The notes: generated by a model from the letters alone, not told the origin. Shown: positions 46,764 through 58,211, numbered from the stretch's first letter. The stretch: DNA of 64,000 nt from Thermoprotei archaeon (GCA_003649205.1 QMRC01000006.1:1-64000); one strand, 5' to 3'. Translations and numbers: made by a program.

Positions 46764-47424
46764 TATGGAGTTATTGAACATGAGCAATGGCGAGGTAGCA
46801 TTTGAGAGAATAATTCAAGCATTTAAGTTGGCACTAAATGAATTGATAGCACTGGTACCTGTAGTACTAGCATCTGTCCTCATAGTTGCACTCATGCTAG
46901 TAATTGCTAAGTACGTAGGTTCTCTTGTCAAGAGGATACTGAAGGTAGTTGGTCTAGATAGGATACTTGAGAGGTACGTAGGTACACCACCGATATCTGT
47001 CGAGAACTTCATCGTCGTATTCATACAGCTGGGCTTCGTAATACTTGGCGTAACAATATCCGTGACAGTATTCGCACCTGAGTACCTAGCTACCTACAAC
47101 ATGTACCTATCCTATATACTGAGGTTGATGTCGGCTGTAGCACTCATAATAATAACGCTCTTCTGGATAGAGGTACTAGTGAATAAGATTCGTGGTGAGA
47201 GCAAGGTAAAGGCATTTGCCTCACTAATAGCCTTCCTCCTAATACTCACCTTCATAATCGACGTAACAGCACTATCTGAAAGCGTTAAGTCATCACTCGT
47301 ATTCGGAATATCCCTTGGACTTGGATTGACAATAGGAGTATTCTCCATATGGTACTTCATGCATGAATACCTTGAGCACTACATCAGCAGAAAGCATGGA
47401 GAGAAAGAGGTCAGACAAGGCTGA
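46753..47424 (+). CDS. Membrane protein with MscS-associated TM-helix-like region; 3' end overlaps attL
   Basis: Multiple TMs, KRILKVVGLD; its stop codon is the last 3 nt of the 17-bp repeat. Confidence 0.7.
   Translation: MVRSMELLNMSNGEVAFERIIQAFKLALNELIALVPVVLASVLIVALMLVIAKYVGSLVKRILKVVGLDRILERYVGTPPISVENFIVVFIQLGFVILGVTISVTVFAPEYLATYNMYLSYILRLMSAVALIIITLFWIEVLVNKIRGESKVKAFASLIAFLLILTFIIDVTALSESVKSSLVFGISLGLGLTIGVFSIWYFMHEYLEHYISRKHGEKEVRQG
47408..47424 (+). repeat. attL direct repeat AGGTCAGACAAGGCTGA
   Basis: Identical to 58195-58211; 10 nt upstream of the integrase ATG. Confidence 0.92.
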
Positions 47425-47434
47425 TTGAGTTCTC

Positions 47435-48598
47435 ATGGAAGAAATCACACCTGATAGCCCTATCTATCAGGTGAGAATAGGTCTCAATTCGATGGAGTTG
47501 CTGAAGCACTTTGAGAGTTGGTTAATTGCTCAGAACCTGTCCGTGGCTACGGTTAGGTCTCATGTTAGACAGGTTAGGTCTTTCCTCACGTGGTTTGGTA
47601 GGTCTATCGAGGATTTGAGTAGTTTCGATATTGCGTGTTACCTAGCTGAGTGCCGTAAGCGTGGTCTATCTGAGGCTAGTGTGAATCGCTATGCTTCTGC
47701 TCTCAAGAAATTCCTGAGGTTCCTAGCTAGTTACTTCAGAGCTAGGAGAAGGGTTGAGTTAGCTAATTACTTTGAGCAGGTGTACCGTGAGGTCAAGGTA
47801 CCTAAGTACGACCTAGTTGAGGTCAGCATTAAGCGACACATGGAGCCTGATACAGCGAGGAAAGTCATAGACTTAATTCATGACCCCTACTGGAAGTGCT
47901 TTTTCGCTGTGCTGTATGAGACAGGTCTGAGGTTGAGGGAGCTTAGACAGGTCAAGGTAAGTGATGTTCACGAGAACAAGCACGGGTTCGAGATAGTTGT
48001 CAGAGATAGCAAGACACCTGAGGGAGTTAGGAAAGTGTACGTGGTTGAGTACTATCAGCTACTGAGGTACTACCTAGAGCATGTACGTCCGAGAGATAGC
48101 GAGTGGTTGTTCCCTGCTAGGAGAGACCCAAGGCAACCAATCTCCGAGAAAGCAATCTACAGCTTTCTAAACCGCTTCAGAAAGCGGACAGGTATCGTGA
48201 TTAGTCCACACCGCTTTAGACACGCTAGAGCTACTGAGCTTTACCGCAAGGGAGTATCTGAGCAGTCGTTAATGAGGTTGTTTGGTTGGAGGACAAGGAC
48301 AATGATTGATGTCTACAGTAAGCTTTCACAGCGAGATGTGGAGTCTGAGCTACTGAGCAAGGTCTACGGGCTATCCCCTGTAGAGAGTGAGAGGTCTCAG
48401 ACTCGTAAGTGCCCGAGGTGTGGTGCTGAGGTAATACCCACAGCTAGGTACTGTCCATACTGTGGTCTAGCCCTAGATATTGCGTCAGTATTAGGCAAAG
48501 AGGAACAGGTACGGAAATACGCAGAGCTCATTGAAGCACTGCTGAGGTACCTAGAGGAACACCCAGAGTACCTGTCGAAACTATTCTCAAGGACTTAA
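47435..48598 (+). CDS. Tyrosine integrase with N-terminal SAM-like domain and C-terminal zinc ribbon
   Basis: ETGLR (R), DSKT (K), HRFRH, FGW, VYS (Y); CPRC/CPYC; not split by integration. Confidence 0.95.
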   Translation: MEEITPDSPIYQVRIGLNSMELLKHFESWLIAQNLSVATVRSHVRQVRSFLTWFGRSIEDLSSFDIACYLAECRKRGLSEASVNRYASALKKFLRFLASYFRARRRVELANYFEQVYREVKVPKYDLVEVSIKRHMEPDTARKVIDLIHDPYWKCFFAVLYETGLRLRELRQVKVSDVHENKHGFEIVVRDSKTPEGVRKVYVVEYYQLLRYYLEHVRPRDSEWLFPARRDPRQPISEKAIYSFLNRFRKRTGIVISPHRFRHARATELYRKGVSEQSLMRLFGWRTRTMIDVYSKLSQRDVESELLSKVYGLSPVESERSQTRKCPRCGAEVIPTARYCPYCGLALDIASVLGKEEQVRKYAELIEALLRYLEEHPEYLSKLFSRT

Positions 48599-48741
48599 AA
48601 GCGGACATGAAACACAGGCAGAGAACACCAAGACCCGCCCTATAGTCCAGAGGAAATGTTGCCTGAATTCAACAATAGTCTAATATGCGTATACGTGTGA
48701 GTGAACAGCGAGCGAGGTAATACACCACTTGAGGATGAATA

Positions 48742-48834
48742 GGGGCTCCTCGGGGGATGATGAAGGGCTTAGCGGAGCGACCCCGCAAGGGGGTATGGCT
48801 GGACCAGGCTAGCTGACCCCTACCCCCTCGCCCC
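48742..48834 (-). ncRNA. Provirus-encoded 93-nt structured RNA with a K-turn
   Basis: Very GC-rich; 5' GGGGC pairs 3' GCCCC; GGGGC-GA-GGGGG / CCCCC-GAG-GA-GCCCC fits the K-turn consensus; GAAACTTAAATA promoter ~25 nt upstream. Confidence 0.65.
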
Positions 48835-48870
48835 GTGATAATGGGTTATTATCACCAATATTTAAGTTTC
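48835..48870 (-). promoter_or_regulatory. TATA/BRE plus palindromic operator GTGATAAT-N5-ATTATCAC
   Basis: Perfect 8-bp inverted repeat 48835-48855 between TATA (48859-48865) and predicted TSS. Confidence 0.55.
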
Positions 48871-48942
48871 TATGCAATTACAGTGAAATTACCATGGTTA
48901 CTTTCTCGTGAGGGGGTTTAAGAACCCTTGATACGTCTTTGC

Positions 48943-49290
48943 TTAGCCTTTCTTTCTGATTAGTCCTCCTATTGCTCCTCCTATCATTGATAGGAATGCT
49001 GAGGCTAGCATCATGAATATTATTGCTAACCCTGCTAACCCACCTGCCCATGCTCCTAGGAATCCAGCTACTGAGAAGCCTAGTACTGTCAGCACTATTG
49101 CTGCTAGTATTCCTCCAATGATTCCACTGAGGAACCCTGCTGCTGCTCCTCTACCTGCTCCTCCTCCAGCTACTAGACCTGCTATGAAGCCTCCAAGTAC
49201 TGGTGCGAAGATGTGTAGTATGGGTGAGAGTACGGCTGTAGCTAACATACCTGCAAAGACACCAGCTATGAAACTCAGTACACGACCCAT
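48943..49290 (-). CDS. Gly-rich membrane protein (DUF5518-like)
   Basis: PVLGGFIAG, GAAAGFLSG, IGGAIGG. Confidence 0.75.
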   Translation of the reverse strand: MGRVLSFIAGVFAGMLATAVLSPILHIFAPVLGGFIAGLVAGGGAGRGAAAGFLSGIIGGILAAIVLTVLGFSVAGFLGAWAGGLAGLAIIFMMLASAFLSMIGGAIGGLIRKKG

Positions 49291-58194: not shown

Positions 58195-58211
58195 AGGTCA
58201 GACAAGGCTGA
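58195..58211 (+). repeat. attR direct repeat AGGTCAGACAAGGCTGA
   Basis: Identical to 47408-47424. Confidence 0.92.

Follow-up and report, generated by a model that had tools for sequence, protein, structure and literature searches.

A GC-rich island in an integrated element of a Thermoprotei archaeon is probably a plus-strand box C/D guide RNA gene related to the MITE-like elements of Pyrobaculum calidifontis

Downstream of an integrase gene in a 64,000-nt stretch of DNA from a Thermoprotei archaeon (GCA_003649205.1, QMRC01000006.1:1-64000; the whole stretch is hereafter the window) lies a GC-rich island of 93 nt (positions 48742-48834) bounded by an inverted repeat, and the question it raises is which of its strands gives the functional product and what that product is. 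An earlier note, which had rightly pointed out the island and its pairing ends, placed the product on the minus strand, as an RNA with a kink-turn (K-turn) made from its own promoter. In the present analysis, the island is instead explained as a plus-strand box C/D guide RNA gene of the family described in Pyrobaculum calidifontis as 'MITE-like sRNA elements' (MITE, miniature inverted-repeat transposable element; sRNA, small RNA), carried as cargo of a 10.8-kb integrated element, and this explanation is probably correct. We infer from the sequence a mature core at approximately 48752-48820; the strand, the ends, the methylation of tRNA position C16 and the antisense role discussed below are inferred in the same way.

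The model matches covering the island are 68-70% G+C, compared with 43.2% genome-wide. From 5′ to 3′, the plus strand of the island runs GGGGC-UCCUC-GGGGG, AUGAUGA, 13 nt, GCGA, a hairpin, GUAUGGC, 12 nt, CUGA and CCCC-UA-CCCCC-UC-GCCCC, with the following parts:

48742..48834, plus strand, whole inverted-repeat-bounded element, with a box C/D sRNA-like core and G/C-rich arms
48742..48756, plus strand, 5′ inverted-repeat arm GGGGC-UCCUC-GGGGG, the same in both genome copies
48757..48763, plus strand, C box AUGAUGA, perfect
48764..48776, plus strand, D′ guide AGGGCUUAGCGGA
48777..48780, plus strand, degenerate D′-like box GCGA (GAGA in the second copy)
48781..48792, plus strand, central hairpin CCCC-GCAA-GGGG
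48793..48799, plus strand, degenerate C′-like box GUAUGGC (GAUGGC, GAUGAGC or GAUAAAG in relatives)
48801..48812, plus strand, D guide GGACCAGGCUAG, 12/12 to positions 12-23 of tRNA-Ser(GCU)
48813..48816, plus strand, D box CUGA, perfect
48817..48834, plus strand, 3′ arm, composed of CCCC (C/D terminal stem), UA, CCCCC, UC and GCCCC

At the ends of the island, GGGGC (48742-46) pairs with GCCCC (48830-34) and GGGGG (48752-56) with CCCCC (48823-27). In an alternative pairing, GGGG (48752-55) and CCCC (48817-20) adjoin the two boxes and leave G48756 unpaired, forming a C/D terminal stem. The C and D boxes together with this flanking stem give the usual layout of the C/D kink-turn.

The 2.07-Mb genome (G000) contains a single paralogue of the island, at G000:C2:53775-53869 (the C2 copy), which is 80% identical; neither a motif scan nor a covariance model found further copies in the genome. 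The arms, both boxes, the hairpin and the following 'AUGGC' are kept between the two copies, whereas the two blocks at guide positions are nearly unrelated. Conserved boxes, arms and hairpin with diverged guide blocks constitute the signature of a guide RNA. The C2 copy also carries single changes within the pairing segments: CCCC after the D box has become CCCU, so that the pair reads G-U if the plus strand is the RNA and A-C if the minus strand is, while GGGG of the hairpin has become GGGA, where the corresponding pairs are C-A and U-G. As far as these sequences go, such single changes do not settle the strand. Elsewhere in the genome, C/D-like sequences GGGGATGATGG... and GGGAGATGATGAATAGATCCTGAGC... 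at G000:C8:75700-75880 are weak motif matches.

Most relatives at other loci (numbered L) came from pattern scans. When the 181-nt region was compared by BLAST with 41 related genomes, only its own genome matched, and the pattern scan of viral contigs gave no match, nor were relatives of the integrase found there. Genome contigs yielded L013 (genome G120, recorded as a Desulfurococcales metagenome-assembled genome, MAG) and L014 (recorded as a Thermoproteales MAG), and metagenomes yielded nine loci. Five of the nine (L037-L040 and L045) carry, almost without variation, one C/D sRNA that is canonical throughout and shares the CUGA-CCC-NNA-CCCC tail, with an extended stem; L041 is orthologous to L013 but differs in its guides, and L042 and L043 duplicate L014 and L013, respectively. 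The ninth, L044, lies on a 226-kb contig, shows no family features past the search pattern and was treated as a chance match. The tail CUGA-CCC-NNA-CCCC(C) is common to the window, the C2 copy, L013, L014, L041 and L037-L040/L045; this form was part of the search pattern in both the contig and the metagenome scans, and the C2 copy was found independently of the pattern. A further member, L054, lies in genome G102, from another family of the class.

Several of these loci have features of their own. The canonical sRNA of L037-L040/L045 has consensus D′ (CUGA) and C′ (UGAUCGA) boxes, the tail CUGA-CCC-UAA-CCCC and an 11-bp GGGGCCCGGGG stem, with AAAGTTTATATAA approximately 55 nt upstream and a terminator-like palindrome, CCAAAAA-N-TTTTTTGG, after it. 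The orthologous loci L013 (2001-2084) and L041 (2001-2087), from two related Desulfurococcales-like records, have the same flanking gene ends and downstream TATA sequence, and both of their guides and the hairpin are wholly different. L054 (273-358 in G102:C61) carries 12 C after the D box and the 'TCATT-GGGGG' junction found in the P. calidifontis copies; TTAAATTA lies 24 nt upstream on its sense strand, and the element is convergent with an integrase homologue.

A covariance model (R1) built from the two copies of this genome matched only two of the 62 genomes of the order, G000 itself and G007, the P. calidifontis genome. The R1 matches in G007 (264436-264516, 101413-101490 and 1470511-1470593) coincide with the published coordinates of copy3 (264434-264511), copy1 (101411-101488) and sR139 (1470522-1470572) in tables S6 and S1 of Lui et al. 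2018 (PMC6009581). The island is best taken as a relative of the P. calidifontis MITE-like sRNA elements. Against the 15 published copies, R1 matched 13, all in the C/D orientation and with E <= 0.11 in this small search, and missed copies 2 and 7. Genome-wide in G007, R1 gave only two matches at E <= 0.01 and four at E <= 10, three of them published copies. The fourth, a weak match at G007:C1:1871207-1871302 (E 0.92), lies outside the 15 published places. The end of the D guide of the window, ...CCAGGCUAG-CUGA, is found again in G007 copies 6 and 10, whose GGCUUGGC is similar to the D′ block GGCUUAGC; the likeness between the window and G007, judged on these blocks, goes beyond generic boxes.

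In the published description, the 15 copies have C and D boxes close to consensus, D′ and C′ boxes that have strongly degenerated and guides of moderate similarity, and their boxes are flanked by highly conserved imperfect inverted repeats (PMC6009581). The guides are orphan or directed at non-conserved tRNA positions, tRNA C16 ('tRNA C16 L') being predicted in Table S4 for the D guides of sR131, sR133 and sR137, and the elements went undetected by the authors in five other Pyrobaculum species (PMC6009581).

Across this wider family, the conserved letters are those of a C/D RNA on the plus strand. The seven members outside G007 all have AUGAUGA and CUGA unchanged, and a C box (exact or with one base changed) and CUGA are present in 14 of the 15 G007 copies, copy 7 having no core recognisable by the scripts used. 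Of the 21 members scored, 17 have Watson-Crick pairs at the first three GGG/CCC positions beside the boxes. A central hairpin between degenerate D′ and C′ boxes marks the long forms, namely those of the window, the C2 copy, L013, L041, L014 and L054; the hairpin sequence varies (CCCC/GGGG, CCCUCC/GGAGGG, CCGCC/GGCGG, CACUCC/GGAGUG and a 10-bp stem in L041) and folds in 6/6, while the G007 copies and the canonical metagenome sRNA are without it. The four letters before the hairpin also vary (GCGA in the window, GAGA in the C2 copy, UUUA in L013, GCUA in L014 and CUAA in L054), so a proper internal K-turn is not conserved. The plus strand is favoured because of the invariant AUGAUGA and CUGA, the GGG/CCC beside these boxes, the placement of the variable blocks at guide positions and the stem cells beside the boxes of 14 G007 copies, of which 90 of 112 are Watson-Crick, 12 are G-U (a plus-strand wobble), 6 are A-C and 4 are other.

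Targets of the guides were sought among the 50 tRNAs called by ARAGORN in this genome. The D guide, which ends directly upstream of the D box, is a 12/12 complement of positions 12-23 of tRNA-Ser(GCU), in keeping with the 10-12-nt tRNA-complementary guide of box C/D RNAs; it forms 11 pairs and one G-U with tRNA-Gly(UCC), and 10 pairs with one G-U and one mismatch with four further tRNAs. With at most one mismatch, the D-guide 12-mer occurs eight times in the genome, compared with none for a reversed control. Counting to the fifth pair from box D, the predicted methylation position is C16 of tRNA-Ser(GCU). The D′ guide, aligned by hand, forms 10 contiguous base pairs (one G-U) with the anticodon arm of the same tRNA (positions 32-41), and the D′ guide of the C2 copy matches this anticodon arm at 11/12; no good partner for the D guide of the C2 copy was found among the 50 called tRNAs. 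The host encodes fibrillarin, Nop5 and L7Ae.

These complementarities also bear on a tRNA-like reading of the minus strand. The D-loop-like stretch CUAGCCUGGU on that strand, observed previously, is present, and 48800-48812 (13 nt) exactly matches the D-loop of the tRNA-Ser(GCU) of this genome; the tRNA-like stretches are accounted for as complements of guide sequences. In L013, two tRNA-like blocks appear in the opposite order (by eye; targets were not found), an arrangement that guides permit and a tRNA mimic would not. The island is not a tRNA, as had been stated: no cloverleaf was called by the tRNA finders, ARAGORN called no gene in the window, and no Rfam tRNA match appeared in 48500-49100 at E <= 10. 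A minus-strand tRNA, including split or intron-containing forms, was considered and rejected, having no T-arm and a hairpin loop of 4-5 nt rather than 7, with ARAGORN silent when introns were allowed.

Several observations weigh against a functional plus-strand guide RNA. No Rfam family matched anywhere in the window at gathering thresholds; the top match, sR21, covered the full model at 19.5 bits compared with a gathering threshold of 45, below every family threshold, and the loci of the relatives gave no Rfam match at E <= 0.1. Neither strand folds better than dinucleotide-shuffled sequence (200 shuffles each; plus strand, z = -0.27, 71/200 shuffles as stable; minus strand, z = -0.07, 86/200). 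Internal D′ CUGA and C′ UGAUGA boxes for a K-loop are absent, only GCGA and GUAUGGC being found, with a hairpin instead of the loop, and the core of 64-69 nt with its hairpin insert is larger than the sRNAs of approximately 50 nt in the table of Lui et al. 2018 (PMC6009581). In the stem cells of the G007 copies, the excess of G-U over A-C, 12 versus 6, is small and comes partly from register slippage. The score of the D′ guide, 9.5, equals that of the top background matches and is weak taken alone. The D guide of L054 (in G102) and both guides of L013 (in G120) had none of their nine places (at most one to two mismatches) in an ARAGORN-called tRNA of their own genomes, this search covering only ARAGORN-callable tRNAs at those places, and a methylation role conserved throughout the family is doubtful because the guides of L013 and L041 differ. 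Finally, the plus strand has only a weak TATA-like sequence, GTAATACA at 48717-24, the strong promoter being on the opposite strand.

Part of this evidence would fit another explanation, in which the island is a selfish or decaying mobile repeat, that is, MITE-like DNA or a relic guide gene travelling with the integrase, its RNAs being by-products and its tRNA match an inherited remnant. Such a repeat would agree with the degenerate D′ and C′ boxes, with the lack of any tRNA target found for the L054 and L013 guides and with the different guides of the orthologous L013 and L041. The second copy stands beside a decayed integrase (one TGA and two TAG in the matched frame, with only pieces aligning), and 10 of the 15 Pyrobaculum copies were judged by Lui et al. 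too diverged to be sRNA genes (PMC6009581). However, the C/D boxes and the hairpin stem have been kept across the Desulfurococcales and Thermoproteales MAGs, G102 and this genome, the D guide of the window matches a host tRNA perfectly over 12 nt, and the genome has only two copies, with no target-site duplication seen. We consider a mere mobile repeat unlikely.

The features on the 3′ side of the island concern the minus strand:

48835..48855, 8-bp palindrome GTGATAAT-N5-ATTATCAC (arms at 48835-42 and 48848-55), between the TATA box and the predicted antisense start
48858..48871, minus strand, BRE/TATA-like promoter AGAAAC-TTAAATAT (BRE, transcription factor B recognition element), pointing into the element

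The 11-mer AAACTTAAATA within this promoter (48859-69, minus strand) occurs twice in the window compared with 0.02 expected, the second occurrence being 48 nt before the ATG of a gene matching Pfam Alba at 6.8e-25. The pattern AAA[CG]TT[AT]A[AT][AT], which was picked after both sites were seen, has 68 sites on the two strands of the genome, and an open reading frame (ORF) of at least 60 aa begins 28-70 nt downstream at 39 of them, compared with 464 of 2000 random places. Two of the 68 sites belong to the two copies: they face inward from 24 and 25 nt beyond the 3′ arms, with unrelated sequence between; at the place equivalent to the palindrome, the C2 copy has the unrelated palindrome TTATGCATAA. 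In archaeal promoters, the TATA box lies approximately 23 nt from the start of transcription, and this spacing puts the predicted antisense start at 48833-48835, the outer edge of the repeat.

By a simple criterion, with no matched control outside this genome, 11 of the 15 G007 copies and at least 5 of the 7 other members have an antisense TATA-like 8-mer that ends 30-45 nt from the D box. L038 fails this criterion, and L014 has TTATATAA at 37 nt by eye. When the G007 copies are aligned, conservation reaches past the repeat and includes TTAGAWAAACTTTTCTCC, of which the opposite strand reads GGAGAAAAG-TTTWTCTAA, and GAAAAG-TTTATCTA is a motif on the antisense side of the Pyrobaculum loci; an antisense promoter is not mentioned for the MITE-like elements in the available part of the article (PMC6009581). 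At L013, the A-rich TATA side faces the other way and is followed by a plus-strand ORF. In one of four DNA runs compared with the window (X2), on a hydrothermal-vent metagenome contig, the element is joined to a DUF5518 gene through 62 other letters, compared with 126 in the window (48821-48948), so the promoter region differs in a relative. Going by these motifs, the minus-strand promoter is probably real, and an antisense RNA is likely to be made from it, given the 11-mer shared with alba, the motif at both copies and the TATA-like sequence at the matching place in most relatives.

With such a promoter in place, the functional product might be the minus-strand RNA itself, made under an operator and binding L7Ae through a K-turn, as a decoy, a regulator or a tRNA mimic. 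A simple K-turn consists of a canonical stem (C-stem), a 3-nt bulge, tandem G-A/A-G pairs and a non-canonical stem (NC-stem), and the minus-strand helix GGGGC-GA-GGGGG...CCCCC-GAG-GA-GCCCC, by reading, has these elements in both genome copies. The GA/GAG-GA bulge is absent from L013, L014, L041, L054, L038 and the G007 copies and is confined to the two copies of this genome, which are identical at the bulge and therefore constitute one observation only. The terminal stems of L013, L041 and L038 are unbroken, the G-run stems of the G007 copies pair directly at the boxes, and L014 is without the outer stem. The bulge may have been gained in this lineage alone, on an antisense RNA that is real, or it may have arisen by chance. 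The promoter identical to the alba 11-mer, its spacing of 24-25 nt kept at both copies across unrelated sequence, the antisense TATA-like 8-mers of the relatives and the U-G that the hairpin change of the C2 copy leaves on the minus strand would all suit a minus-strand product. So would the antisense reads at the MITE-like loci, which average 39% compared with 9.3% at other sRNAs (PMC6009581). On the other hand, AUGAUGA, CUGA and the adjoining GGG/CCC are meaningful on the plus strand only, the variable blocks stand at guide positions, and the C-to-U change after the D box of the C2 copy gives the plus strand a G-U pair and the minus strand an A-C. A functional product confined to the minus strand is quite improbable.

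The earlier note was accordingly borne out on much of what it had observed. The CCCC-N4-GGGG hairpin is present at 48781-92 as CCCC-GCAA-GGGG, the promoter motif is indeed shared with alba, the 8-bp palindrome stands near the predicted start, and the start that had been predicted near 48834 agrees with the one derived from the TATA spacing. Its K-turn fits the simple consensus but extends to no relative, and 'K-turn RNA' holds only in the general sense that all box C/D RNAs are such, the conserved signal being on the plus strand. That the island is not a canonical C/D RNA is true of the minus strand alone. On the plus strand both boxes have their consensus form, and in a permissive Rfam search of 48500-49100 all five sub-threshold matches were to plus-strand C/D families; at gathering level, the Rfam check that had been proposed gave no match. 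A comparison among relatives showed the plus-strand boxes to be kept and the minus-strand bulge not to be conserved. Right on the promoter and on the provirus context, the note chose the less conserved strand, since the boxes conserved across lineages are on the plus strand; nothing in the analysis supports a role as decoy, antitoxin or mimic for tRNA-guanine transglycosylase.

Both strands might also act together, as a two-strand mobile module in which a guide of the provirus methylates C16 of host tRNA and a strongly transcribed antisense RNA, equipped in this lineage with its own L7Ae-binding K-turn, titrates the guide or L7Ae under an operator. We give this combination little credence. If it were true, the integrated element could switch host tRNA modification with its life cycle, and the same convergent design could be behind the unexplained high antisense reads of the Pyrobaculum elements.

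The island lies inside an integrated element, as had been proposed, with the following features on its 5′ side:

47408..47424, left 17-nt direct repeat AGGTCAGACAAGGCTGA, putative attL (right copy at 58195..58211)
47435..48598, plus strand, tyrosine integrase with a C-terminal zinc ribbon, 387 aa (PF00589, E 3.4e-24; PF02899, 1.8e-13; PF13240, 1e-07)
48599..48660, 62-nt block right after the integrase stop, 100% identical at the C2 locus

The two 17-nt repeats are 100% identical, lie 10,787 nt apart and are the sole copies in the genome even when two mismatches are allowed. The cargo of this 10.8-kb insertion comprises the integrase gene, the RNA element, on the same strand and 143 nt downstream of it, a DUF5518 membrane protein gene, many small ORFs, a DpdA-like gene and a helix-turn-helix (HTH)/ATPase gene. 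Homology with the C2 locus is confined to 47421-48837 and comes in pieces. Around the 62-nt block, integrase pieces show 72-89% DNA identity, and the approximately 80 nt that follow cannot be aligned with the C2 locus; the block might represent a regulatory site or an RNA under conservation, or the two loci may have undergone gene conversion recently. On the promoter side of the C2 copy, G000:C2:53994-54785 (about 9995-10786 in L015) contains a gene for a 74-aa Cro/CI-type HTH protein (PF01381, E 3.4e-20) and a DUF2178 membrane protein gene. Only one of 28 other integrase-homologue loci in the class has a family member (L054, approximately 100 nt from the integrase 3′ end and convergent with it), and L013 and L014 have no integrase within 2 kb. 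As few integrase loci have such an element and some members of the family have no integrase nearby, it is cargo here, neither a fixed partner of the integrase nor its attachment site. An attachment-site reading of the island was also examined and dropped, no partial copy of the island being present elsewhere in the genome.

That the island is a DNA-level site, either an attachment or arm site of the integrase or the replication origin of the integrated element, is very improbable: its 143-nt distance from the integrase gene, the end of the two-locus homology at 48837, just past the island edge at 48834, and the L054 case would suit it, but the insertion is bounded by a different 17-mer at 47408 and 58195, parts of the island are repeated nowhere in the genome except in the C2 copy, L013 and L014 lack a nearby integrase, L054 is reversed relative to its integrase, and the published G007 copies are said to lie at a distance from genes (PMC6009581).

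Under the preferred explanation of a plus-strand guide RNA gene, the sense RNA would probably come from read-through of the integrase gene or from the weak upstream TATA sequence. L7Ae would bind the C/D kink-turn, and Nop5 and fibrillarin would assemble on the guide RNA. The D guide would then pair with tRNA-Ser(GCU) at 12-23, and nearly as well with tRNA-Gly(UCC) and other tRNAs sharing the D-loop, directing ribose methylation to C16, next to position 15, the archaeosine site of archaeal tRNA. The D′ guide would pair with the anticodon arm of tRNA-Ser(GCU); since D′ and C′ are degenerate, the D′ half may only hold the tRNA, or be inactive. The convergent promoter at 48858-71 would start an antisense RNA running over the whole guide and toward the integrase 3′ end, and this RNA would most likely damp the guide RNA and perhaps the expression of the integrase.

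Repeat-flanked guide elements, previously described in one Pyrobaculum species, are now found in another family of the order, in Desulfurococcales and Thermoproteales MAGs, in G102 and in metagenomes. One of them is cargo of an element with an integrase, and guide RNA genes may move between archaea in this way; the inward promoter offers a testable explanation for the large share of antisense reads observed in the 2018 study. For a provirus, carrying a guide directed at a host tRNA would be an uncommon way of reaching the translation apparatus of the host; no report of such a guide in archaea surfaced in a limited literature search.

Among known systems, the simple K-turns bound by L7Ae, such as ribosomal Kt-7, have the same order of elements as the minus strand, read from its sequence, with a Watson-Crick G-C following the tandem G-A here. 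Guides directed at tRNA are complementary to a tRNA loop, as here, and a dual guide to one tRNA is possible for the window; in Pyrobaculum, 32 of 110 families target 23 tRNA positions, a tRNA-Trp intron guide is among the references, and dual tRNA guides are called rare, with four families (PMC6009581). Position 16 is no conserved modification site in the wording of Lui et al. for the MITE-like copies (PMC6009581).

Canonical archaeal box C/D sRNAs (e.g. sR21, RF01137) share with the island the C box RUGAUGA, the D box CUGA, the terminal-stem K-turn and guides of approximately 12 nt with the target at the fifth pair from box D, and the island differs from them in its non-consensus internal boxes, hairpin insert and long flanking arms. 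From the P. calidifontis MITE-like elements (sR131, sR133, sR137, sR139, sR141 and ten further copies), it differs in having two copies rather than 15, a 12-nt GNRA-capped hairpin between D′ and C′ and a 5x2 internal loop in its arms, and the flanks of approximately 60 nt on each side that are conserved among the G007 copies are not common to it. Nor is it dispersed and far from genes: its two copies each stand beside an integrase gene or its remnant, and that of the window is inside an integrated element by an integrase rather than in a gene-poor region, where the published copies lie (PMC6009581). The box and repeat architecture and the similarity to the published copies are nevertheless those of the MITE-like elements: both have consensus C and D boxes with degenerate D′ and C′ boxes (PMC6009581), a G-rich/C-rich imperfect inverted repeat around the boxes, very similar D guides pointing to tRNA C16, and a BRE/TATA-like motif on the opposite strand approximately 35-45 nt from the D box.

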